The notes beneath the pieces were generated by a model. The model was not told the origin of the DNA. It made no database searches and was given only the letters and a program-made list of their open reading frames with translations. Positions 10,306 through 20,936 of a stretch of DNA of 46,041 bases are shown in pieces. How positions within the stretch are numbered: position 1 is the stretch's first letter; each line of letters begins with the position of its first letter. The position numbers and the translations under genes were made by a program. Origin of the DNA: a virus. The stretch is taken from the UHGV virus genome UHGV-1457062; one strand, 5' to 3'.

Positions 10306-10962
10306 TTATTTCACTTCTCCGTCATACGTCGGAAGGGTGTCTTTAGTGGTGCTGGCTGTTCCTGCATTGGTTGGCACTTGGCTTTTTACCTGTCCGCCTG
10401 TGCTCTTAGGTGATGCGGTCTTTACAGCAATAGCGTTAGTAGTTGCATAACTCACTAATCTTATCTGTTCGAACTGCAAATCAAACTGTAAAGCTGATTC
10501 TGTTTTATATTCGTAGTCAATGCCTGTCAGAATCATATTATCAAACGTCTTATGCTCTGTGCTTACAATAATAGGCTGTCTGGCATTCATTATTTCATCA
10601 AGATAAGCAATAGCCTGTGAACACCTGTTACCGTTCACCCCTGCACTTGATAGCATATCACCACGTAATGCTAATGGTGTTTCTGTAATAATGCCTGAAA
10701 GCATAAGTTTATTATTCTTGATCCTGACATTATCAGATACATCATTACCATCCTGCACAGGATACGATGTAACATCGGCAGAACGTGAAACCTTAGTTGC
10801 CGGAACAGCGTCAAAAGTAATAGCTTTATAACTGGCTATCGTTGATGCATTCTCGTTATTCAGGTTGCTACATATAATGGCAAATCCGTTATCAGATTTA
10901 ACCTTGCTGTTAGATGTATTAATGTTAGATGTGCTGTTGATCTGACTTTCTTTGATAGCCAT
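10306..10962 (-). CDS. hypothetical protein (218 aa), Ser/Thr/Asn-rich
   Basis: Long ORF last in a co-directional block; no recognised motif. Confidence 0.55.
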   Translation of the reverse strand: MAIKESQINSTSNINTSNSKVKSDNGFAIICSNLNNENASTIASYKAITFDAVPATKVSRSADVTSYPVQDGNDVSDNVRIKNNKLMLSGIITETPLALRGDMLSSAGVNGNRCSQAIAYLDEIMNARQPIIVSTEHKTFDNMILTGIDYEYKTESALQFDLQFEQIRLVSYATTNAIAVKTASPKSTGGQVKSQVPTNAGTASTTKDTLPTYDGEVK

Positions 10963-11035
10963 TTATATTAATCCTTGTGTAATGAGCGGAAAGCAATAAA
11001 TATTGCCCCCGCTTTATTATTAGTTATCGTTAAAC

Positions 11036-12937
11036 TTAGTTAACGCTACTCTGTCCTGACAACGTGCTAAGAATCAGATTCGAACTAAACTGATTGTTGT
11101 TCGCTCTGATCTCAGTGCGGATTAAATCCTGAAAGCCGGGACCGTTAGGGATGACGTTAACAGAGATCATATCACTCGGCACCGTAACCTGTGCATTCAC
11201 GTTAACAGGGGTTGCGTATTGACGTTGTAGGCTTACAGTCGGCTGATAGGCTTCTGCTTTACGTGCAACAAGGGTTGATCCGTAGCTGTTAGCATTGCCA
11301 TTAATTAAATCAGTCCACCACCCTGGAACGCCGGACTGTGTTTCCTCACCGCGCACAATACGCCCTACATCTTTCGTATCGAGTCCAGTTGCATAACGAA
11401 TACCTTCATTGATAATCGTTGATGGCGACCATTCCCCATCTGTAACAGCGTCCATAACCTTTTGTGTCTCAGGTCGGTTATCATTCTCACCACGGCTAAG
11501 ATGTTTATTAATCCAGCTTGTGATTTGATTCCCGTAAGAAGTCATAGAGGTCAGTAATATAGCGCCTTGTTTAGCCAAATCCCCGAACGATGCACCAACA
11601 CCATAAGCTGCATTCTGTAAGGCTTTGCTTTCTTCCGGTTTGAGTGCTGGCATGTTGGCTATGCCATCAAAGAAGCCCAAAATAGCCTGATTCGATAGTC
11701 CATCTGTCAGACGGTCAAAGGCTGTAGCTGTCTTGTTAGCTGCGCGATATTGCTCTTTCTGTGCTTCTGTCAGTAGCTGCCCGTTGTTTTCCATATCAAC
11801 CATCGTTTTACGGAACTCTTCCCCATCACGGGAAAACATCTTGAGATAATGGCTGGCATCGTCTGCTAATGGTTCGATCAGGGATATGATGGCTTCTTTA
11901 GTCATTCCTCGGCGTTCACCTTCTCTCACCACGTCTTGCAAGAGTTGCAGCGGTCGCCCCTGGTAGGAAGCTATCTTATCTTTGTTCCATGCAAAGGCAT
12001 TCTGAATATCATTTAATGATCCTTCCCCGCCTCGCCACTCTTTTTTCTTACTATCCCATTCAGCAGTTCGGCTTTGATGACCAATGCGTTCGTTTAAGTC
12101 TTTGATATTATCAGTGGTCTTGTCCGCGCTTGCACTTGATACACCGTTTGCCCTCCCCCAATTAACCATTGCAGCCACCTGATTGCTATCGGCACCTACC
12201 AGATCGCTCATCTTCTGCAATTCCATACGTTCACGGGCTTTTTCCATTCCAGCGGATACAGCCATACTTCCTAAGCCAACGGCAGCGCCGCCGATAATGC
12301 CACCAACACCGCCCATCATTAACGCGCCACCGCCGCTAACACCTTCTTTGTGGAGCTTCTTAGAAGTAACTGGATATACCCCCCCAGCGGCAGCATTACG
12401 ACGCGTAGCAGCGGCTGCGGCTCGTCTTTCTAATGTGATGCGGTCACGGATCAGGGCATTCATCTTCGCTTGCGATATAGCGCCGGATTCATAGAGGCGG
12501 GTTTGTTCCTTAATGTAACGTAGAGCATCGTGATATTTCTTAATATCCATCCCTTCGCCATAGCGGGAATTGTTCTTGATGCCTTGTAACTGGCGATATG
12601 ATGCAAGGCGCTTGATCTCTGCCTTTTCAGCAATTGAGGCTCGTTTAGCCTGTGCTTTAGCGAGGTTTTTAGCTTCCTGTAGCTTCTGTTTAGTGCTGGC
12701 TTTAGATGCCTGTGTCTCAGATTTAACAGCCTGCTTAACATGCTGATCATGCTGGCGCTGAATCTCTTTTCCCAGCCTCTGTAAATCTTTCTGACGTGCT
12801 GCCGCCACTTGCACAGGTTTGATCCCCTGCATCTTCTTTTGTAGCTTATCCACTTCATTCTTAGCTTTCTGTAAGCTCTTGAAATCAGTGGTAAATGTCA
12901 CAACATTACTAATTCGTGAGGCGCTAATTTCTAACAT
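11036..12937 (-). CDS. hypothetical 633-aa protein: basic coiled-coil N-terminus, Gly-zipper hydrophobic segment, large C-terminal domain (tape-measure/pilot-like architecture)
   Basis: Heptad-like K/Q/A-rich N-terminus, GGALMMGGVGGIIGGAAVGLGSMAVSAG segment, no P-loop or catalytic motif recognised. Confidence 0.7.
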   Translation of the reverse strand: MLEISASRISNVVTFTTDFKSLQKAKNEVDKLQKKMQGIKPVQVAAARQKDLQRLGKEIQRQHDQHVKQAVKSETQASKASTKQKLQEAKNLAKAQAKRASIAEKAEIKRLASYRQLQGIKNNSRYGEGMDIKKYHDALRYIKEQTRLYESGAISQAKMNALIRDRITLERRAAAAATRRNAAAGGVYPVTSKKLHKEGVSGGGALMMGGVGGIIGGAAVGLGSMAVSAGMEKARERMELQKMSDLVGADSNQVAAMVNWGRANGVSSASADKTTDNIKDLNERIGHQSRTAEWDSKKKEWRGGEGSLNDIQNAFAWNKDKIASYQGRPLQLLQDVVREGERRGMTKEAIISLIEPLADDASHYLKMFSRDGEEFRKTMVDMENNGQLLTEAQKEQYRAANKTATAFDRLTDGLSNQAILGFFDGIANMPALKPEESKALQNAAYGVGASFGDLAKQGAILLTSMTSYGNQITSWINKHLSRGENDNRPETQKVMDAVTDGEWSPSTIINEGIRYATGLDTKDVGRIVRGEETQSGVPGWWTDLINGNANSYGSTLVARKAEAYQPTVSLQRQYATPVNVNAQVTVPSDMISVNVIPNGPGFQDLIRTEIRANNNQFSSNLILSTLSGQSSVN

Positions 12938-12971
12938 GCTAATTGTTTCCCTGTATTATGATTGTTGTTTG

Positions 12972-13169
12972 TTATTGTTTTTTAGAACAGTAGTATGTAA
13001 TTGCTTCAAAAGTGCTGCACCCAGTCTGAAACACACGCTGCCGCACATTATTTGCATCAATTGAAAGCATTCTGCATAAGGCACTGACATTGATTATTGA
13101 GTCATCGCTAATAGCTGCCAGTTCTTTTACAGACTTAAGAATTAATGCCTGTGAATTTTCTGTGTTCAT
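12972..13169 (-). CDS. hypothetical small protein (65 aa)
   Basis: Short ORF in the gap between the 343-aa and 633-aa genes, same strand. Confidence 0.3.
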   Translation of the reverse strand: MNTENSQALILKSVKELAAISDDSIINVSALCRMLSIDANNVRQRVFQTGCSTFEAITYYCSKKQ

Positions 13170-13322
13170 TGGTTTTCTCTCACATATATATTTTTATTTG
13201 GGTTTGTAGACAGTAGAAAAACAAAAAAGGCAAAGAGATTCGTTACTGTATTTGCGCCTACAGGTTAGGTAATCCCTTTACCCTTATTTTCCAGACGATG
13301 GGAATCGTCTATTAATGCTTTA

Positions 13323-14354
13323 TTACGCAGCAGATCCGAAGATGATAGCTTGCGGAATGTTGTTTACTGGCAGATAAGATGTCTCAGTAACCACAGATGG
13401 GAATTGGAATTCATCCTTGATTAGATATTGGTGATGCAACACGGCATCTTGACCTAACTCAGCATGACGCACACCAACGCCTGTGTGAAGCTGGTAACAC
13501 TGTACCGATTTATCCATTACCGGGACAATTGCGAAACCGTTCTCTCCGATGTGAGCAACAATCTCAGGAAACATTGACACATCAATAACAGTGATCCCAC
13601 CAATCTGGAAAGAGTCATAGGCTGGGTTAGAATCAACCATACGGGTAAACAGGGCCGTAGCACTCGCATCACCTGCATATTTCACCATGTCACTGATCAG
13701 CGGGTTAGATGACAAACCATCAGCAGCAGCGCCAGCAGCAAAGATAATTACACCAGTTCGCTTTGCAGCAAGACCAGACCCCAGCTTTTCACTCTGTAAG
13801 CGCACCGCTTTACGAATAGCAAGGAACGGGTTAACAGTAGTCGATGCAAAGTCGATAGCGGGTACCGTGGTTTTAGCCTGACCGTCGAGGAAGTCGAGAT
13901 CACCTTGTCCGGCATATTCAGATTCAACTTTCAGTCCCAGCAGCGCGGTAATCAGATCCACTTCAACACGGTTTGCGTGTGAACGGTAATGAGCCTCAGA
14001 GAAATCATTAACCGCTACCAGCATAGCATCAGAACGGTTTGGATATTGGCGGCTGTATTGTTCCAGGTCACGAGAAGTAACAGCGTTAATACTGCCGACG
14101 TGTTTCATCTGGAAAAGTTTGTTTGACCATTCCTGACGTTTAGAGGCGTTCCAGTCGCTTTGAGCGTAAGGCGAGGTTTCCCCAGCTACCTGCACAAACT
14201 GATCGATCAGGTCGGTAAGAAGAATGCTGTTTTCTGTATGATATTGCACATCGAACAGATCGAGATTAGTAATCAGGGTATTAAGTGCATTCTCATAAGC
14301 AAAAGGAGTTACTACCGCAGTATTAACGCCAAAATATGTTGATAAATCATTCAT
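13323..14354 (-). CDS. hypothetical protein (343 aa)
   Basis: Long ORF in co-directional block; no nucleotide-binding motif; function unknown (structural role is only a guess). Confidence 0.65.
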   Translation of the reverse strand: MNDLSTYFGVNTAVVTPFAYENALNTLITNLDLFDVQYHTENSILLTDLIDQFVQVAGETSPYAQSDWNASKRQEWSNKLFQMKHVGSINAVTSRDLEQYSRQYPNRSDAMLVAVNDFSEAHYRSHANRVEVDLITALLGLKVESEYAGQGDLDFLDGQAKTTVPAIDFASTTVNPFLAIRKAVRLQSEKLGSGLAAKRTGVIIFAAGAAADGLSSNPLISDMVKYAGDASATALFTRMVDSNPAYDSFQIGGITVIDVSMFPEIVAHIGENGFAIVPVMDKSVQCYQLHTGVGVRHAELGQDAVLHHQYLIKDEFQFPSVVTETSYLPVNNIPQAIIFGSAA

Positions 14355-14368
14355 TATTATTTTCCTTG

Positions 14369-14752
14369 TTAAGTCGTAGGGATCGCAAGTTCTTCATAAC
14401 CAGCAATTACAAAGCCGAGAGATTGCAGTTTTGCAATAACACTTGCCTTTTCCATGCTGTTAAATTCAATCCCATCTTCAGCCAGAATAACGAAAGTAGG
14501 ATGTGCAACCACTACGCTTTCCTGTCCTTCATAAGCCGGTTCAACTACTACGTGAGCAATATCAGATGCAGTTGTTGCTTTGGTGCCATCGGCTTTCAGC
14601 AAAGCCCCGACAATAAGATCGTCAGTGAGAGGTGAAGCCAGTTTGACGAGGCGATCTTGCAGCACTGGATCAGCAGCGTAAGCTACTACCTTACAGCGTG
14701 AACGGGAATTATCCGCATTCACTGCTTTTAATTTTCCATATGGGTTAGCCAT
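14369..14752 (-). CDS. hypothetical protein (127 aa)
   Basis: ORF 15 bp upstream of the 343-aa gene, same strand. Confidence 0.55.
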   Translation of the reverse strand: MANPYGKLKAVNADNSRSRCKVVAYAADPVLQDRLVKLASPLTDDLIVGALLKADGTKATTASDIAHVVVEPAYEGQESVVVAHPTFVILAEDGIEFNSMEKASVIAKLQSLGFVIAGYEELAIPTT

Positions 14753-14756
14753 AAGA

Positions 14757-14954
14757 TTATTTTCCTTTCAGTTGTTTAATTTTAGATTTAAGGGCATCAG
14801 CAAGACTAACCGCATCAGCCGATTTAAATAATTGGGCAGTGGTAGAACGAAGACTTTCGGGAGTAACTCCCAACAGTGCGGCAACCTTAATGAGGTTTTC
14901 ATCACTAACAATCATCGTTTCCCCGTCTTTGCTGATAATCATTTCTTGTTTCAT
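14757..14954 (-). CDS. hypothetical small protein (65 aa), basic C-terminus
   Basis: ORF track 14757-14996; internal ATG at 14954 (MKQEMIISKDG...) has an AGGAA RBS. Confidence 0.45.
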   Translation of the reverse strand: MKQEMIISKDGETMIVSDENLIKVAALLGVTPESLRSTTAQLFKSADAVSLADALKSKIKQLKGK

Positions 14955-15135
14955 AAATAACGTTCCTGTTAGTGCCAGACAAATAAAAAGCCCCAATGCC
15001 GTAAGAGGTTAATTCTGACCAGCAAAGGGGCTTTAACGTGCGGGCAATTACATAATTGATAAGTTAAACTATAAGAGGATTAAACATATCAGCAAATACA
15101 CTTTTTAAATATACTTGATGATATGCTTAAAGGAT

Positions 15136-15200
15136 GAATATCAGATCTTAGAAGGAAGGCTCTTAGGAGTTGCCCCTGGAATCACTAAGATCTGATATTC
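15136..15200. repeat. perfect 16-bp inverted repeat (gaatatcagatcttag / ctaagatctgatattc) with 33-bp spacer
   Basis: Read directly from sequence inside a ~950-bp ORF-free gap (15000-15948). Confidence 0.8.
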
Positions 15201-15948
15201 TGGATGCGGTGGCTAACCGCTGCCTGTTTTTGCTGTGGATGCAACAAAGTAAGGCTTTAAGGAATCACTATTCCAATTCTCATCTACTCACAGATTAAAT
15301 TTTAATAGGATTAACTACACCAACAATAATCTACCGTTTCAGAAAAAGCGTTTTTACAACCAAAGATTATAGATTTGCAGTCTATAAAACCCGTTTTGCT
15401 ATCAATATTTCCAAAGGTTATTGCACAATTCTTAGCTAAACTCTCTCTGCTTGCGGCTAACGCTATGCAGATGATTGTTTTTGACAACAACTTAATAGAT
15501 TATTCTGTTACTAACTTCCGTCATTAAATAAGAGTTTAATGATGTTAGTAAATAGTTATAAAATATAACTATCAGTGTAAGGCTCTTTAATGTTTTCGGA
15601 CAAAATAAGGAGCTTTAGGATAAGCATAGATGAAAAATAAAAGCGGGAAGGGCAAGGAGATAACACCTACCCGCTTTTATCAAAATTAAGCACAATGCCT
15701 AACAACATTCATCAACACAACGTAGAAACAATCAACAATCAAAGAGGGAGTTATGATTATTCTAAAACTTCTTGAGGGGATGGAAGGTAATATTTGTTAG
15801 AGGTTAATGCCACTCAACCTTTGAGGCTATCACCTTCCATATGCAGGGATTTATGACAGTAGAAGGATTAACACCAGTCAAAACCTTTTTATCTATCCCT
15901 AATATTATTATATAATGAAATCGTTATAAATGCAAATAATTTTCATTA

Positions 15949-16257
15949 TCATTTAGAGAAAATAGCACTTTTTGCTAAATCATCTACTAATTGCTGAATC
16001 TCTTCACTTGCAGCCTTTAACGTGCTGGCGGTGTCTGTGATGGTTTGAGTGCACATCTTGGCATCGTCCTCAATTAGCTCTAAATCGCTCACCAGAGAGA
16101 TAAAATCGTCAAGGCTTACATTCACCTTCATTAAGCTAATAACGCATTGAGAGAGCGTGTAATCGCATAAATCTGAATAGGCTTGATTTATTCTTGTTTG
16201 TAGTGAGATAGTCAGATCTAAAAGTTGTTCCATTGCATTGCTAATATCTTCTTCCAT
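15949..16257 (-). CDS. hypothetical acidic protein (102 aa), translationally coupled to rep
   Basis: Start ATG overlaps rep stop (TAATG); about 22% Asp+Glu. Confidence 0.55.
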   Translation of the reverse strand: MEEDISNAMEQLLDLTISLQTRINQAYSDLCDYTLSQCVISLMKVNVSLDDFISLVSDLELIEDDAKMCTQTITDTASTLKAASEEIQQLVDDLAKSAIFSK

Positions 16258-16817
16258 TATGCGGCTTCTCCTTGTAATGCATCATTAATCATATTCAATA
16301 CGATGTTAAAAGGTGTCTTGAGCGTCAGCACTTCATCACGATAACGCTCTAATGCTTCGTAGTCTTCTGTTTCTTCGTGCGGTGGTTTCTTCTTATCAAG
16401 GGAAAGAAGCCAAGTAAAAATTTCGGGCCGCTCAGGGAACTCTGATTCCTGTATTTCTTCTTCAACGATGATTTCTGAAACATTCAATATTTCATTAGAT
16501 TCGTTTTCTTTCTCAGAAGGATCAGGTAGTGATGATTCTCCTTTTGGAATATCAAGCACTCGATAAAGGTTAGAGCTTCCTGGTCGTGCATCTTTTATAA
16601 TTAATCCCATTTCGAGCAATTTCTTAACCCTTTCTTCTGCTGCTCTTGGTGTTATGCCAAAAACATCGCCTATCTTAGCGTAAGAGGGAAATGCACGATC
16701 AAACCCTCTCAAATAGCAGTAAAGGTTTTTAGCACTATCTGTAAATTTATGCCCGTTTACTTGGCTTATTTTTAGAATCCACATAGGAACTTTTACAAAT
16801 TGTTCTTCATTAATCAT
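16257..16817 (-). CDS. putative replication initiator (winged-helix Rep-like)
   Basis: ORF track 16257-16841 (GTG); ATG at 16817 with AAGGAGA RBS; HTH-like region ...KIGDVFGITPRAAEERVKKLLEMGLI...; iterons nearby. Confidence 0.5.
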   Translation of the reverse strand: MINEEQFVKVPMWILKISQVNGHKFTDSAKNLYCYLRGFDRAFPSYAKIGDVFGITPRAAEERVKKLLEMGLIIKDARPGSSNLYRVLDIPKGESSLPDPSEKENESNEILNVSEIIVEEEIQESEFPERPEIFTWLLSLDKKKPPHEETEDYEALERYRDEVLTLKTPFNIVLNMINDALQGEAA

Positions 16818-16870
16818 TAAAAATCTCCTTGATGTAATCACGCTCTACGGCGCTACTATGGTGATAAAAA

Positions 16871-17041
16871 TCACTTGCTTTTGTTTGAGAGTGTTTCAGC
16901 CTCTCTTTTCAACATATCAAGAATGTAATCTGTAACAGTGATACGTTTACTTCTGGCTTCTTTAAACAACACCTGAAATACTTCATCAGGAATATGAAAG
17001 CAAGTGCGTGGTTGTCTTTTCTTTTCTGTAGTTTCGCTCAT
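16871..17041 (-). CDS. ribbon-helix-helix (Arc/CopG-like) small regulator, 56 aa
   Basis: Manually translated MSETTEKKRQPRTCFHIPDEVFQVLFKEARSKRITVTDYILDMLKREAETLSNKSK; strong AGAAGGAG RBS; below the ORF-track size cut-off. Confidence 0.45.
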   Translation of the reverse strand: MSETTEKKRQPRTCFHIPDEVFQVLFKEARSKRITVTDYILDMLKREAETLSNKSK

Positions 17042-17062
17042 AGTTTTCTCCTTCTCCTGTTA

Positions 17063-17245
17063 TTATTCTTTCTCTGCTTCTGCCTTACGCAGTTCATCAA
17101 TAATTTTTAGTGCGTCGTCAAAGCATTTTTCACGCTCTGGGTAGCCACGGCGACGGGCTGTATTACGATTCTGGCGAACCTGGTAGCGGGTCATCTCACC
17201 AGCGAGATACGCAGAAACAATGTCATTTGGTGTAAACCATTTCAT
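17063..17245 (-). CDS. hypothetical small basic protein (60 aa)
   Basis: ORF at head of the RHH-rep operon. Confidence 0.4.
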   Translation of the reverse strand: MKWFTPNDIVSAYLAGEMTRYQVRQNRNTARRRGYPEREKCFDDALKIIDELRKAEAEKE

Positions 17246-17859
17246 TTTTGTAATTCCTTATTCAAATAAAAGAAAAACACACCTTGCAGCCTGACGGCTC
17301 AAAGTGCAGTGTATTGTGATTTGATTATTTAGATGGGGGAGATGCTTTTCTTACCCCTCACATTTACTTTACTACATATGGAGGCTTTTGTCAACCCCCT
17401 TTCATAAAAAATACGATCTTTTTCAATTTCTTATAATTTTTCTTATCTTTTTGTGCTATCTTATCTGGTACAATTCTCCACTATTGTCTAAAACGCTCTC
17501 AATCGCATTCTGACGAGGTTTTGATAAAAACAAGACATTCCCTTATGTAGAGGCTATTTATCTCGTCAGAGGCTTGTTTAAGGGGCTTATTTTGTATTTG
17601 TTAGATGATGGAAAGATGATGATAGATAAACTCTGATTTCAAACACCTTATAAAATACCTGCAAAGCTCTCAGAAGCTCTATAACGAGCTAATCTATTAC
17701 CGCTAAGTGTTTCCCTACCTTATATACGTTTAGCTCGCCTACGGCTTGATTTAAGCGGTAGAAACTTATTTAACCTTCAACTACTAAAACCATTCTTTCT
17801 TTTTTGTTTGTTGTTGGTTGTTGTCTGTGTGCTAACATCGCTAACGCGTAGCACACAAG

Positions 17860-18240
17860 GTTATTGCACTCGTCAGAGTATTGCACAATAGATTTTCTCT
17901 TAAATAGATTGATGATCGTTAGATTGGCGTAAGCCTCATCAATGGAACTATTGAAGCGCACAGCGCATAGACACTAACAACCATTCGCTTACGCTCAGGT
18001 TATTGCACAAGTAAATTTCAATCGTTAGATGGTAGTTAGTTAATTATCGTTCTGCGCACAGCGCAAGACTATTTAGCCTTACGCAAGCCGTAGGCTATTT
18101 GCACATAGTAGATTACATATTCGTTGTGAGCGGCATTAGCGAACATAGATCTACTAACTAACATCAACAAACAAAAAACTATGTGTTATGACAAGCAGTC
18201 TAACGACTAACACTCTAACTTGTGCAAGGTTCTGGCGAAT
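17860..18240. repeat. degenerate direct repeats (recurring TTATTGCACA, ATCGTTAGAT, GCGCACAGCGCA, CTTACGC motifs)
   Basis: Motif sets recur 2-3 times in the same order within the ORF-poor region 17250-19000. Confidence 0.5.
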
Positions 18241-18359
18241 GCCAATAGATTAAGGGATAGTCGAAGACTCCCTAACGGGTATCCCTTAATTATTCTTTAA
18301 AGATAAAAGAATTTATAAAAGATAATTTAATTGTAGTTTGATAGTTGATCTAATAGGTA

Positions 18360-18500
18360 ACAAAATTCTGTAGGGGTGGCTAACAGTTTTCTGTGGGGGT
18401 GTCTAACATAATTCTGTTAGGGTTGGGGTAACAGTTTTCTGTTAGGGTGCATATTTCTTTAAAAGTTAAGGATAACAGAATTCTGTGGGGGTAGTTCACA
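18360..18500. promoter_or_regulatory. iteron array (5 x ~22-bp TTCTGTnGGGGT-type repeats), candidate replication origin
   Basis: aattctgtaggggtggctaac / agttttctgtgggggtgtctaac / aattctgttagggttggggtaac / agttttctgttagggtg / aattctgtgggggtagttcac in tandem. Confidence 0.6.
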
Positions 18501-19010
18501 GTGACCTACCGTTACATCCATTTATCACATAACATCTGTGCAATGATCTTCTAAAAGTGTTTCTTGCTACCAAAATTAAACATCTAAAACAGGCTTAAAT
18601 TCAATGTAATTGATGATTAATCCCTGTGTAATTCCTACGTAAAAATTCAATGAAAAGTAGCTTAAAAGTGCAATGTTAGCTTTCTTCACTTTTACATCAC
18701 TTTCGCTGTGCCTTGTGTAATGCGGCATATAGCGCATCACTGCAAAATTGTTGCTCAATAAACGTTCTATCATTTGTCGAACAAGTTTCTTTAATGCAAC
18801 AAAAAATTATTTTTTCAAAATAAACACACTATTTAATAGCTTGCTAATTTTACCAAAACGTAACTACATGATTCTCATGCAAGACGTGTAGTGATAAAGC
18901 AGGCTAAATCACCACACTAAAAACCTTCGAATTTCGTAGTGAAAAAAGTCCTTTACACACCTAATCAACACGATCAATAATCACTACACACAAATCAACA
19001 CAGAAGGAAA

Positions 19011-19568
19011 ATGAAAATGGCTAATATTGGATACATTAGGGTATCGACTGTCCAACAAAACACAGACCGTCAATTAGCTGGAGTAACTCTTGATAAAGTC
19101 TTTGAAGATAAAGCGTCAGGCAAGAATACCCAGCGCCCACAGTTTGAGGCAATGATGAACTATGTGCGTGAAGGTGATGTTTTGCATGTTCACAGCATTG
19201 ATCGACTTTGCCGTAATACAGCCGACCTACTGGCAACGGTTGAGCAATTAACAGAGCGCGGCGTGTCTGTGCATTTCCATAAAGAAGACTTTAAGACAGG
19301 GAAGAACTCTCCCGCAGGGAATATGATGCTCACAGTGCTTGCAGCAGTGGCACAAATGGAACGTGAAATGATGCTTGAGCGGCAGCGTGAGGGGATCGCC
19401 GCAGCTAAGGCCGCTGGACGTATAGCAAAACGTGGTAATGGAAAAGCAATTGATCGAGCGGGAATTGTTGCCGCTCTCGCGAATGGTGGATCAATTCGGA
19501 GCGTAGCAAAAGATTTCAGTGTCAGCACACAGACGGTGCAACGTATCAAGAAAGAGCAGGAAGCGTAA
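19011..19568 (+). CDS. serine recombinase (resolvase/invertase family)
   Basis: N-terminal IGYIRVSTVQQNTDRQ catalytic motif, C-terminal HTH; about 185 aa; alternative start at 19017. Confidence 0.85.
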   Translation: MKMANIGYIRVSTVQQNTDRQLAGVTLDKVFEDKASGKNTQRPQFEAMMNYVREGDVLHVHSIDRLCRNTADLLATVEQLTERGVSVHFHKEDFKTGKNSPAGNMMLTVLAAVAQMEREMMLERQREGIAAAKAAGRIAKRGNGKAIDRAGIVAALANGGSIRSVAKDFSVSTQTVQRIKKEQEA

Positions 19569-19908
19569 TGCCTCCTGATATTTGAGAATTGTCGCTGCGT
19601 GGACCTGACGCCGCTGATCTTCGCGTTAAACATTGATCACGTCTGCGCCGATTTCAGAGAAAAAGACAGTAACTGAACTCACTATGAAGGCTAAACGTAT
19701 CTTTACACTTGATGAAAACGTTCAAAAAACAACCTAACCCCAAAATTCAACAAATTGCAACACATTGTTTTTAAAAGAAAATTAAATCTACATCAAATAT
19801 TGGTTGACGTAGATTGAGGTGAATAGTAGACTATTAGGGTAAATTACCACCCTTGTAACATCATTTAATGCATGTTCTAATCTTCCTATCGTAAAACCGG
19901 AGGAAGTT

Positions 19909-20067
19909 ATGCATTTACTTTCAAAACATCTTCACACTATTCACTTTCTCGTTATTGATGTATTCGTTGTGGCTATTAGTTACCGCATTTGCATCGCTTC
20001 CAGTGAAGAGATGGACGCTGTTGCAATTATTGCTCAAGCAATGGCGATGTTAACTAAACGACTTTAA
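19909..20067 (+). CDS. hypothetical 52-aa hydrophobic peptide
   Basis: Manually found ORF with GGAGGAAG RBS and upstream TTGACG/TAGACT promoter-like hexamers; single predicted TM helix. Confidence 0.25.
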   Translation: MHLLSKHLHTIHFLVIDVFVVAISYRICIASSEEMDAVAIIAQAMAMLTKRL

Positions 20068-20888
20068 TAATTTCACTATCAGGTGCATAAACACATCTTT
20101 GATCGCTGGATGTGTTATGCGCCTACTGGTGATTCAATCCTTAAGCCATTTCAACTCACTAAGGAGTTTTCTTTCTTCGTTCTCTCGCTGTTTACGCTCT
20201 AGCCAGGCTTTTCCTTCTGGCGTAGACAGGAACTTACGAGCGTGAATCTTGCGGTTATTACGTTTGATAGCTGCAATGTTTTTCATCGTGTGCCTCTGTA
20301 TTCATATGAAAATTAACAAGTTACATACTACACAGGAAGGCTACGCATAAAACACAATACAAGTAAAGATACATTTTCAAGACAATAGGAGCCATAAAGC
20401 GCCTTTGATGGTTATACCAAAAAATAAGCGCCGTAGGCGTATCCACTAAAAAGGGCTTTTTCACAAAAGCTATGAAGTCTTAGCAGTTCTTCTCTTATCA
20501 GGCACCCGTTGTACTCCGGTGGACGAAACCGTGCTAGAGCTTGATTCTTTCCCGATCAAGTTAGGTTTTGAAGAGGTGGGCTTTAATCCACTATGCACTT
20601 AAAACTCTTCCCATCATTTAGCCTGTTTATCCTCTGCAACGTCTCACGACGTGTAGCATCATTGGACACCGCGCCAGGTGTGGAACATCTTGCTAAGAGT
20701 TTTGGTAGAAGGTTTAGAGACGGTGGCACGTCTTCCAGCTTCAAAGGAACTTGTTACGAGGTTGAGCCTGTGAACTACTCGCCCATACGTGTTACACTAC
20801 CAAAGCCCATAACAACGTATAGGCGTTTGTAAGTGATAACAGAAGATACAATTTCTTAGAGAAGTTAAGCTAAGTTATTGATTTTCTT

Positions 20889-20936
20889 AATGGTGCCGAT
20901 AATAGGAGTCGAACCTACGACCTTCGCATTACGAAT
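20889..20936 (-). repeat. 46-48-nt copy of thrW tRNA-Thr(CGU) 3' portion (anticodon loop to CCA); P22-type att core, not a complete tRNA
   Basis: Reverse complement reads ATTCGTAATGCGAAGGTCGTAGGTTCGACTCCTATTATCGGCACCA; 5' half of the tRNA absent (sequence diverges at 20937). Confidence 0.7.

Follow-up and report, generated by a model that had tools for sequence, protein, structure and literature searches.

A probable iteron origin and a putative structured RNA in the gene-free stretch of a satellite-like element of Escherichia coli

A gene-free stretch in an integrated satellite-like element

What does a small mobile element keep in a stretch of about 1.7 kb that carries no recognizable gene? 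The stretch in question (positions 17,246 to 19,010 of a 46,041-nucleotide viral sequence, UHGV-1457062, hereafter the window) lies between a leftward rep operon and a gene for a serine recombinase (19011-19568; Pfam Resolvase, E 1e-38). We regard it as the replication-control region of an integrated, phage-satellite-like element of about 12 kb in E. coli (about 8.7-20.9 kb in the window), with two working parts, a lambda-O-type iteron origin and, upstream of it, a conserved multi-helix element (Table 1). Our preferred reading, to which we assign a probability of roughly 0.55, is that the stretch combines an origin with an adjacent structured element, putatively RNA rather than single-stranded DNA, whose promoter and function are likewise putative. 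An earlier, sequence-only reading had proposed an iteron-type origin together with partition or regulatory sites or a non-coding RNA locus. The origin was upheld and the RNA locus emerged as the best of these options, whereas the partition site was not supported.

The scarcity of ORFs noted in that reading was confirmed. The longest stop-to-stop frame is 76 aa. The small ORFs were rejected as genes because their protein identity between loci falls below their DNA identity, and the corresponding 1.0-1.9 kb in Klebsiella and Leclercia was left empty by gene callers. At the right end of the stretch, the GTAGTGA/TCACTAC half-site-like repeats preceding the recombinase gene (at 18888, 18936, and 18981) may form a res site, and a consensus scan placed the promoter-like TTTACA-18-AATAAT at 18952-18981. 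Logan contigs of 13.4 kb, considered as circular episomes, were rejected as such; their ends fall inside the integrase gene because elements of this kind sit in tandem. The satellite family, which carries capsid and tail genes and resides in Enterobacteriaceae, appears to be undescribed so far, with neither the element nor the region described in the literature on the thrW/vat island, on satellites of phi92/phAPEC8-type phages, and on new satellite families.

Table 1. Features of the gene-free stretch and the adjoining rep operon, in window coordinates.
Feature	Position	Strand	Basis or remark
Leftward rep operon	16257-17245	-	HTH-like, RHH-like, and Rep ORFs
Rep, O-like winged-helix initiator	16257-16841	-	PHROG matches
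56-aa RHH-like protein	16871-17041	-	assigned by reading the sequence
60-aa HTH-like protein	17063-17245	-	assigned by reading the sequence
Candidate rep-operon promoter, TTGACA-17-TAAAGT	17366-17394	-	consensus scan, 10/12 matches; putative function
Candidate rightward start region	17454-17499	+	extended -10-like motifs, then boxA-like CGCTCT
Local duplication of the AGCTCGCC..GGCTTGWTTAAGSGG block	17558-17765	+	copies near 17558-17590 and 17731-17765
Structured module, type A, degenerate family member	17796-18300	+	fold, profile match, conservation
Hairpin GTGTGCTA..CGC-TAA..GCG..TAGCACAC	17827-17856	+	MFE fold
5' arms of the long-range helices closing the module	17862-17926	+	pair with 18196-18247; inverted repeats
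Repeat unit 1, ATCGTTAGAT ... GCGCACAGCGCA ... TTATTGCACA	17915-18020	+	repeat search, alignment
Repeat unit 2, mini-hairpin, then hairpin 18074-18097	18021-18126	+	repeat search, fold, profile
Family-invariant UGAGCGG within helix UUCG/CGAA	18120-18143	+	sequence
3' arms of the closing helices, with inverted motif TTGTGCAA at 18220	18196-18247	+	inverted repeats, fold
Terminal hairpin GATTAAGGGATA..TATCCCTTAATT, 3' edge of module	18248-18291	+	12-bp helix; no canonical terminator
AT-rich stretch, putative DNA-unwinding element	18283-18345		85-88% A+T in 40-nt windows
Five iterons, TAACAGwwTTCTGTnrGGGT, one orientation	18358-18502	+	repeat search, TRF
One iteron-like relic each from two other Rep classes (TTCACAGTGACCTACC, CGTTACATCC)	18494-18520	+	by eye
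Three inverted WTTRCACA copies right of the origin	18537-18721	-	TGTGCAAT at 18537; TGTGTAAT at 18625 and 18714
Upstream region of the serine recombinase gene	18886-19010	+	half-site-like repeats, promoter-like sequence

Iterons follow the class of the initiator

The five iteron copies start at 18358, 18381, 18404, 18429, and 18473 (spacing 23/23/25/44), TRF reports a period of 23 at 18366-18447, and TTCTGTNRGGGT occurs 5 times in the entire window, always on the plus strand and within 18366-18492. The tandem iterons of the earlier reading are thus borne out by the repeat search, by TRF, and by their uniqueness to this spot. A GATC at 18347 lies beside the AT-rich stretch, and AT-rich stretches with a GATC at the same place recur in the relatives. 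Rep, encoded nearby, matches replication-initiation and O-like families of PHROG (E 1e-8 to 2e-4) and, weakly, HTH_36 of Pfam. Homologues of the 60-aa protein of the same operon were found in E. coli, Escherichia albertii, Klebsiella, Raoultella, and Leclercia.

Related loci collectively carry 8 or more Rep classes, and every class has a distinct iteron, regardless of the module type (A, B, or C) found upstream. The iteron sequence follows the Rep class in 25 of 26 loci, the exception being L047, in which a Rep of one class is paired with iterons of another. Where the Rep class differs, the iteron block is replaced; where Rep is 97-98% identical, it is kept. During these exchanges the AT-rich stretch stays with the module, the similarity breaking at 18342. 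Such co-change of initiator and repeats argues for an iteron origin. Tandem repeats of approximately 17-23 bp in helical phase, an adjacent AT-rich region, and an iteron-matched initiator gene in cis, the hallmarks of this type of origin, are all present, so that the origin proposed earlier is well supported and the gene-free stretch very probably contains it, as judged from the sequence. Single relics of foreign iterons, compared with the iterons of L012/L032 and L019/L041, persist at the conserved right junction of the array. No DnaA box (TTATCCACA, at most 1 mismatch) or IHF site (WATCAANNNNTTR) was found in 17250-19010; neither is required by lambda-type origins.

Lambdoid ori-lambda/O and the rep-ori regions of SaPI/PICI elements share several traits with this locus: direct repeats of about 20 bp, arranged in tandem and in helical phase, an AT-rich stretch next to them, a nearby gene for an O-like initiator of the winged-helix type, and the joint change of iteron and initiator. 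Unlike in those systems, where the iterons lie inside or just 3' of rep, here a distance of approximately 1.1 kb separates them from the rep operon, upstream of which they lie. In addition, neither a P-like loader nor a primase was recognized, DnaA and IHF consensus sites are lacking, and a folded element of 0.5 kb is attached on the AT-rich side.

The divergent control region

Between the rep operon and the module, a TTGTCAAC(CCCC) block containing the -35 hexamer of the candidate rep promoter is kept in the loci inspected (the window, L007, L010, L042, L043, and L045); the exact heptamer of this block is missing from L002 of Franconibacter. In the rightward direction, extended -10-like sequences TGcTATCTT (17454-17462) and TGgTACAAT (17466-17474) are followed by the boxA-like CGCTCT (17494-17499). 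A CGCTCT-like sequence is present downstream of the start region in nearly all loci. TGnTAnnnT at an equal offset from TTGTCAA was found in the window and in 5 of 15 related loci, and no convincingly conserved promoter of the module could be recognized beyond this extended -10-like motif. We therefore treat 17454-17499 as no more than a candidate rightward promoter. Farther downstream, many relatives contain a single copy of the AGCTCGCC..GGCTTGWTTAAGSGG block, which corresponds to the absence of 17586-17727; their BLAST alignments stop at 17585 and restart at 17728, and the two parts overlap in the subject.

The second repeat family is part of a structured module

The sequence-only reading had described a set of degenerate repeat units to the left of the iterons. 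The motifs indeed recur in the same order, with AGGTTATTGCAC at 17858 and 17997, ATCGTTAGAT at 17915 and 18021, and GCGCACAGCGCA at 17956 and 18054, but they make up only 2 units and a partial third (TATTTGCACA at 18097) rather than a larger set. Units 1 and 2 are identical in 70 of 117 columns (60%), with an alignment score of 75 versus 32.7 ± 7.1 (maximum 56) in 500 shuffles. Relatives lack exactly one unit, between the 2 ATCGTTAGAT or the 2 GCGCACAGCGCA copies, and unit 1 is missing from L003, L005, L006, and L008; these one-unit absences identify the units as real tandem duplicates. The central domain of a structured module has been duplicated in tandem, and the two copies make up the second repeat family. 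A partition site is unsupported, given that the repeats reflect a duplication within a folded element and that no parA/parB-type gene is present among the ORFs of the element (Pfam, PHROG, and NCBIfam). The earlier reading overlooked two properties of the repeat region, namely its long-range inverted complementarity and its membership, as a degenerate copy, in a family of conserved structured modules.

In the window, the fold of 17720-18300 reaches -167 kcal/mol (z -6.4 on the plus and -4.6 on the minus strand), and a second run on this type A copy gave z -4.5/-5.7 (+/-), without consistent strand asymmetry between the runs. A profile of 21 non-A modules matches 18021-18087 on the plus strand (E 1.6e-9). 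The module is closed by long-range helices 17862-17888/18220-18247 and 17905-17926/18196-18217; across 15 sequences, the 24-pair closing helix is 97.8% paired and shows one-sided changes from U-G to C-G and from G-U to A-U, most pairs of the type A copy being invariant. The 5'-proximal hairpin consists of MFE helices 17827-17834/17849-17856 and 17839-17841/17846-17848, and relatives of the L007 type carry GCGTTA..CCCC-AAA-GGGG..TAACGC in its place, still a hairpin by eye. Unit 2 includes the family-invariant mini-hairpin GCGC-ACA-GCGC (18054-18064), and in every module folded a hairpin of varying sequence follows GCGCAYAGCGCAA. The invariant UGAGCGG (18127-18133) is enclosed in relatives by unrelated helices, namely CUACGC/GCGUAG, CUUGUUCC/GGAACAGG, and CUUUCGG/CCGAAAG (pairing by eye). 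The terminal hairpin is a perfect palindrome in L015 and is deleted in L014; no terminator-like site, including an intrinsic terminator after the module, was found in 17000-19200. Likenesses to a hammerhead (CUGACGAG), a T-loop (GGGUCGAACC), and boxB (GCGC-ACA-GCGC), noticed by eye, received no support from Rfam and are not put forward.

Folding and covariation across relatives

Against dinucleotide shuffles, 8 non-A modules have z-scores of -5.6 to -9.6 for the strand that reads towards the origin; for the opposite strand, the values range from -1.9 to -6.2. The forward MFE is below the reverse one by 17-48 kcal/mol in all 8, whereas non-coding flanks yield -0.3 to -2.9 and the flanking non-coding and coding controls overall +0.8 to -4.0. 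In 21 modules, the forward strand contains more G than C (skew +0.11 to +0.19). In the three-way junction, 15 of 15 pairs are kept in 7 sequences (100% of cells paired, compared with 25-38% in slid controls), and 6 pairs show double compensatory changes; since only Watson-Crick pairs from about 3 lineages were counted, the test is silent on the strand and on RNA versus DNA. Around the invariant GCGCACAGCGCAA and UGAGCGG, different modules carry helices at matching positions although the helix sequences are unrelated; much of the helix covariation was recognized by eye. When RNAalifold was run on the 3' domain as aligned by plain MAFFT, just 5 pairs emerged because the stems were misaligned. 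Strand-specific fold stability in the non-A modules and compensatory changes that maintain helices are both as expected of structured RNAs in general. It is this family-wide structure and covariation, and not the repeats themselves, that makes a non-coding RNA locus the best reading of the second repeat family.

Loci that share only 72-84% identity in the rep region are 86-96% identical over 17728-18342, the module being better conserved than the adjacent rep genes. Across Escherichia, Franconibacter, Klebsiella, and Leclercia elements, modules of 0.4-0.65 kb share one position, directly adjoining the AT-rich stretch on its upstream side. Among 5,426 complete E. coli genomes, the unannotated module was present as type A in 352 and as type B in 438, roughly one genome in seven to one in twelve; carriers include ExPEC strains with the vat island and E. 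coli D8 (NZ_CP010151), whose module lies at 2894632-2895132. The earlier reading had named remnants of a degraded coding sequence as one outcome that would overturn it, and decayed coding sequence or functionless filler could account for the scarcity of ORFs, the AT-richness of type A, and the indel polymorphism. The compensatory changes and a conservation above that of the flanking genes contradict it, as do the 76-aa limit on open frames, the poorer conservation of the small ORFs as protein than as DNA, and the occurrence of the module in 4 genera, which makes this explanation extremely improbable.

Searches for known RNAs and related DNA were negative. None of the 4,227 families of Rfam 15, including GOLLD, ROOL, C4/CI antisense RNA, ribozymes, and tRNA-like structures, matched the region at the gathering score; a permissive threshold returned chance-level matches only (E 0.5-5), and nothing was found in the modules of L002, L010, L042, L043, and L045. 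Neither the region nor a Klebsiella module has DNA similarity to phages or plasmids, except for 2 E. coli records in the plasmid set, and a comparison with the adjacent P22-like prophage for a shared pac site revealed only chance 11-13-mers.

RNA, single-stranded DNA, or protein-binding sites

In the model we favor, Rep produced from the leftward operon would bind the five iterons and open the adjacent AT-rich stretch. The module would most likely be a non-coding RNA whose transcription starts in the divergent control region and runs rightwards to the origin and into it. The repeats, the co-variation of Rep and iterons, the fixed position, the folding beyond that of shuffled sequences, and the compensatory base changes are computed properties of these loci; from them we infer that the folded module is somewhat more probably an RNA than anything else, its molecule type, promoter, ends, and function being part of that inference. 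Such an RNA would most likely act in cis, its transcription and folding beside the unwinding element helping to open or prime the origin by analogy with transcriptional activation of ori-lambda or RNA II-type priming, which would couple replication to derepression of the control region. Cis-activation or priming as the specific role remains a doubtful assignment. In Klebsiella, a Dam gene points towards the origin from the opposite side, so that antisense transcription of the module is possible.

The module might instead work as single-stranded DNA, its hairpins serving, after opening by Rep, as priming or helicase-loading signals akin to IncQ ssi or primosome assembly sites. It always adjoins the AT-rich stretch, a linkage kept through iteron swaps, strong strand-specific folding persists under DNA energy parameters (z -6.8 versus -4.3), and no clear promoter or terminator was found for it, all of which would fit. 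Known ssi and pas signals are single or double hairpins of 40-130 nt, whereas the module is a multi-junction fold of 400-640 nt. Furthermore, its helices contain many G-U pairs and tolerate A-U to G-U changes, the folded strand left of the origin would be the leading-strand template and little exposed, and the right flank lacks a mirror structure (z -0.6 to -2.9 in a search for convergent structured transcripts or paired ssi sites). We consider a single-stranded DNA signal rather unlikely.

A distinctive motif, WTTRCACRA, bears on 2 further explanations. Its TTRCACA core occurs 7 times in 17881-18714, compared with about 0.45 copies expected from the window-wide density; it is forward in the repeat units of the module (17881, 18003, and 18099) and reversed in the 3' arm (18221) and right of the origin, where the 3 inverted copies are spaced 88-89 bp apart. 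L010 has the same layout, and an extra copy at 15415-15428, in a second ORF-poor gap, is confined to type A loci. A motif that changes direction across the origin in this way might still be recognized by a DNA-binding regulator. The repeats as a whole could accordingly be sites in duplex DNA for a regulator, partition, or packaging protein, with the folding a by-product of palindromes: the 7 copies face each other across the origin at spacings of 88-122 bp, the L010 layout and the additional type A copy agree with this, and the neighboring genes encode small HTH-like and RHH-like proteins. Protein sites on duplex DNA would not be expected to yield nested helices of a three-way junction in which 6 pairs have changed on both sides and none is broken, nor helices that differ wholly in sequence between lineages while the topology is kept. 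Together with the strand asymmetry of folding, the lack of ParA/ParB or terminase genes, and the lack of similarity to phages, plasmids, or the adjacent P22-like prophage, this renders duplex sites very unlikely.

Alternatively, the module could be a stand-alone RNA acting in trans, either as a protein sponge with a repeated UUGCACGAG-type motif or as a regulator of the helper phage or host, its proximity to the origin being incidental. Five to seven same-strand WTTRCACRA copies in differing structural contexts and loop motifs GCGCACAGCGCAA and UGAGCGG, invariant in all types, are compatible with such a role, and abundant non-coding RNAs with unknown role occur in satellites and phages (PMC7567579). 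Conversely, the position against the AT-rich stretch is invariant in every locus, no terminator bounds a discrete RNA, and the motif recurs inverted in the unstructured right flank, pointing to a role of the motif at the DNA level. A trans-acting RNA is therefore unlikely, and an RNA acting beside the origin stays our preferred reading.

Relationship to known origins and RNAs

A parallel in organization is offered by PLE, small integrated satellites of Vibrio cholerae that produce abundant non-coding RNAs. There, too, a non-coding region of kilobase scale (about 3 kb) is bordered by genes in a leftward cluster; part of this region is an iteron origin bound by the Rep of the satellite itself (PMC7567579, PMC7145576). 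The 2 elements have no sequence relationship, the non-coding RNA highlighted for PLE (the IIR transcript) is located elsewhere in the satellite (PMC7567579), and the sections of these reports considered here mention no conserved structured module beside the PLE origin (PMC7567579, PMC7145576). RNA-based origins, known from ColE1 (RNA II) and from extrachromosomal mycobacteriophage prophages (PMC7157519), likewise involve a structured RNA of several hundred nt directed towards the replication start, as would be the case here, but need no Rep or iterons, both of which are present in our locus. Because Rep and matched iterons are present and no antisense RNA I-type partner was identified here (nor was an RNase H site), we do not assign the region to the ColE1-type RNA II primer origins, and the resemblance is one of functional analogy only.

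GOLLD and ROOL RNAs resemble the module in size class (0.4-0.65 kb), in their many helices and junctions, in their prophage-like carriers, and in having no known function. The module differs from them in lacking an Rfam match even at E up to 5, in residing in another host clade, the Enterobacteriaceae, and in its fixed position beside an origin. In IncQ (RSF1010) oriV, strand-specific hairpin-forming DNA also adjoins an AT-rich segment and iterons; there, ssiA and ssiB are hairpins of about 40 nt on both strands, whereas the fold described here is one-sided, multi-junction, and 400-640 nt long, and the element encodes no RepB'-type primase.

Implications for the satellite family

While the iteron origin itself is ordinary, a covariation-supported folded element fixed to its unwinding side is unusual. 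This element spans at least 4 genera and at least 8 Rep/iteron specificities. Hundreds of sequenced E. coli carry it, yet it is missing from Rfam, phage and plasmid collections, and annotated genomes alike. Tentatively, it may represent a new class of large ornate non-coding RNA, integral to a hybrid "Rep + RNA" origin in an apparently undescribed satellite family. As a single-stranded DNA signal, the module would be by far the largest of its kind. If, in turn, its RNA helps to fire the origin, it would reveal a new way in which transcription is coupled to initiator-driven replication in mobile elements and would provide a handle on an apparently uncharacterized family of satellites.

A satellite-like element at the thrW site

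The window matches the chromosome of E. coli D8 at 99.99% over positions 1-20936, where the D8 annotation and profile searches give the gene order yagU, the vat autotransporter island, a ~12-kb integrative element and the thrW tRNA-Thr site, the last of which is broken in the window at 20936 by a P22-like prophage. The ~12-kb element (Table), which carries neither terminase nor portal, looks like a phage satellite of an apparently undescribed family, and no account of it was found in the literature. Klebsiella, Leclercia, Raoultella and Franconibacter have related elements, 2 of them in tandem on one K. michiganensis contig (L059). Beside the non-coding region, E. coli and Franconibacter encode a small recombinase of the serine resolvase type; the loci from Klebsiella, Leclercia and Raoultella (L042-L058) encode a 186-205-aa tyrosine recombinase in its place, which a Dam methylase gene often separates from the iterons.

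The ~1.4 kb of the window from the recombinase gene to the thrW junction (19570-20936) has only ORFs of 48-52 aa, and Klebsiella relatives carry HNH and other genes at the matching end. The P22-like prophage (20937-46041; tailspike head-binding domain, injectosome translocase, P22 coat, portal and large terminase) is inserted in thrW immediately after the element. The D8 match stops inside the tRNA-Thr, and an ARAGORN search of the window yielded no intact tRNA. Within the element, the early (rep) and capsid genes are separated by a second ORF-poor gap of ~1 kb (14996-15949). An Rfam IS009 sRNA scoring 197 bits (154-354, minus strand), between yagU and the window start, is unconnected with the finding.

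Features of the element and of its non-coding regions (window coordinates)
Feature	Position	Strand or direction	Remarks
Integrative element at thrW	8700-20936		~12 kb; D8 annotation and profile searches
Tyrosine integrase	8867-10231		Part of element
Dit-like tail protein			Part of element
633-aa tail protein			C-terminal two thirds like Phi92_gp134 and phAPEC8-type myophage "tape measure" (E 1e-48, ~33% identity)
343-aa capsid-like protein (gpE-like)			Phage_cap_E in relatives
Terminator-like hairpin	15206-15223	+	Second ORF-poor gap
AGGTTATTGCACAA copy (WTTRCACRA motif)	15415-15428		Second ORF-poor gap; type A loci only
Promoter-like site	15936-15907	-	Second ORF-poor gap
Rep operon	16257-17245	Leftward	60-aa HTH-like protein, 56-aa RHH-like protein, O-like Rep
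Gene-free stretch under study	17250-19010		1.76 kb; part of element
Repeat units 1 and 2	17915-18020, 18021-18126		Second repeat family
WTTRCACRA	17881, 18003, 18099	Forward	Module repeat units
WTTRCACRA	18221	Reversed	Module 3' arm
AT-rich stretch	18283-18345		63 bp
Iterons (n = 5)	18358, 18381, 18404, 18429, 18473		Starts; repeat search
WTTRCACRA	18537, 18625, 18714	Reversed	Right of origin
185-aa serine recombinase	19011-19568		Part of element

A composite replication-control region with two repeat systems

The gene-free stretch is a real, composite replication-control region. From left to right, it comprises a candidate rep promoter with the leader, a conserved block of control sequence, the structured module, a putative AT-rich unwinding stretch, 5 iterons specific to the Rep class, a set of inverted motifs and the recombinase upstream region with res-like half-sites. 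It is non-coding. Its longest open frame is 76 aa, its small ORFs show lower conservation at the protein than at the DNA level, and gene callers predicted no gene in the corresponding stretch (1.0-1.9 kb) of the Klebsiella and Leclercia loci.

Both repeat systems described in the sequence-only reading, the iterons and a second, longer family, are real. The iteron core TTCTGTNRGGGT is absent elsewhere in the 46 kb. The second family consists of 2 degenerate tandem units followed by a partial third; units 1 and 2 are identical in 70 of 117 columns (alignment score 75 versus 32.7 ± 7.1 in shuffles) and both carry, in one common order, TTATTGCACA, ATCGTTAGAT and GCGCACAGCGCA. In relatives, precisely one unit is missing, and the deletion ends fall within repeated 10-12-mers.

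A probable iteron origin

Comparison with 57 related loci was decisive for the origin question. Loci with a Rep 97-98% identical to that of the window can be aligned with it across the iterons; in those with a Rep ~50% identical, similarity ends at 18342 and restarts at 18488-18510. In the 26 loci for which Rep-iteron pairing was tabulated, at least 8 Rep classes are each associated with one iteron sequence, and related Reps go with related iterons (L043 compared with L045, the window with L056). The pairing is independent of module type, the window's Rep class occurring with TAACAGAATTCTGTGGGGGT in types A, B and C. The sole mismatch among the 26 is L047 (2836-3110), presumably a recombinant: its Rep and the L048 Rep are 100% identical, and its iteron array is that of L056, a locus with a Rep of a different class. 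The stretch was searched for DnaA and IHF consensus sites and none was found; lambda-type origins likewise lack them. The iteron-type origin proposed earlier is supported by the co-variation of Rep and iterons across loci and by the 63 bp of 85-88% A+T that precede the iterons, and we put the probability that the stretch holds such an origin at about 0.85.

Immediately after the last iteron (18494-18520), TTCACAGTGACCTACC and CGTTACATCC each occur once. They resemble the iterons of 2 other Rep classes, which suggests that iteron arrays may be swapped at a common junction. Strand composition also reverses at the origin: on the origin-facing strand, G exceeds C in the non-A modules (21 loci, +0.11 to +0.19), and on the same strand right of the window iterons (18503-19010) C exceeds G (-0.25).

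A conserved module with a predicted fold beside the probable origin

In every locus, a block of 0.4-0.65 kb separates the control region from the AT-rich stretch. This module has at least 3 sequence types: type A in many E. coli as well as the window, type B in L010 and relatives, and type C and the Klebsiella types in Franconibacter (L002) and L042-L058. Little is common to the types except UGAGCGG, GCGCACAGCGCAA and some short stretches able to form hairpins, all in constant order. A profile of 21 non-A modules matches unit 2 of the window at E 1.6e-9 and unit 1 weakly, indicating that the second repeat family is a duplicated central domain of the module, composed of a hairpin, a GCGC-ACA-GCGC mini-hairpin and another hairpin. 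The GCGCACAGCGCAA domain is also duplicated in Klebsiella-type modules (L047-L049 and L056-L058, e.g., L047:3046-3682), where an (TTAATTGA)n microsatellite of locus-dependent copy number divides the 2 copies. Module DNA is 86-99% conserved, versus 72-84% for the adjacent rep-operon DNA. No Rfam family matched the module, and nothing similar was found in phage and plasmid collections. Of 5426 complete E. coli genomes, 352 carry type A and 438 carry type B, at most 3 per genome and chromosomal with one exception; no annotated feature underlies any module match among the matches listed.

The region 17720-18300 folds at -167 kcal/mol (z -6.4 against shuffles); non-coding flanks and coding controls gave z of +0.8 to -4.0. 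In L010, z is -8.8 on the strand equivalent to the window plus strand and -4.6 on the opposite one; 8 non-A modules range from -5.6 to -9.6 on the origin-facing strand versus -1.9 to -6.2 on the other, with forward minimum free energy lower by 17-48 kcal/mol in all 8. A three-way junction, UUGUGCC ... GGCACAA around 2 hairpins, was formally counted on 7 sequences: all 15 pairs are intact in 100% of cells, 6 with both sides changed and none broken, and slid controls show 25-38% pairing. Read by eye, helices of unrelated sequence fill the same positions across loci, including CUACGC/GCGUAG, GUA(G)CGUC/GGCGUAC, CUUGUUCC/GGAACAGG and CUUUCGG/CCGAAAG just 5' of UGAGCGG, and UUCG/CGAA at UGAGCGG in the window. 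All modules folded have a hairpin of variable sequence 3' of GCGCAYAGCGCAA, and the stem of the GGCUYAGUGAAC..CUYUAGCC hairpin survives replacement of C-G by A-U and of A-U by G-U. Most type A pairs are invariant; the 24-pair type A closing helix (17862-17888 with 18220-18247) is 97.8% paired across 2 divergent left-arm variants, with changes from U-G to C-G and G-U to A-U.

RNA or single-stranded DNA

On these predicted folds, the module would most likely be a non-coding RNA that reads into the origin. For the second family, the suggestion of a non-coding RNA locus is favoured by folding and compensatory changes across the module types; strand preference in the window's own copy is inconsistent. 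Candidate extended -10 motifs for rightward transcription lie at 17454-17462 and 17466-17474; only 5 of 15 related loci have such a motif at the corresponding offset, and in most loci a boxA-like CGCTCT lies downstream. A terminator scan 3' of the module found none; the module, if RNA, probably extends into the origin. The strand asymmetry of folding persists under DNA energy parameters, which makes action as single-stranded DNA a possible alternative.

The WTTRCACRA motif, corresponding to TTATTGCACA, occurs in 7 copies between 17881 and 18714 versus ~0.45 expected. Its orientation flips in L010 as in the window, and the flank right of the origin is unstructured. This DNA-like layout suggests that the copies, besides their place in the fold, may be binding sites for one of the element's small regulators.

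The nearest analogies are PLE satellites, which have their origin in a large non-coding region and produce ncRNAs in abundance (PMC7567579), as well as RNA-based prophage origins (PMC7157519), ColE1 RNA II and the ssi hairpins beside the iterons of IncQ. The module region belongs to none of these 4 systems. The origin is of a known kind; what is new is the structured element attached to it, which merits experimental attention.
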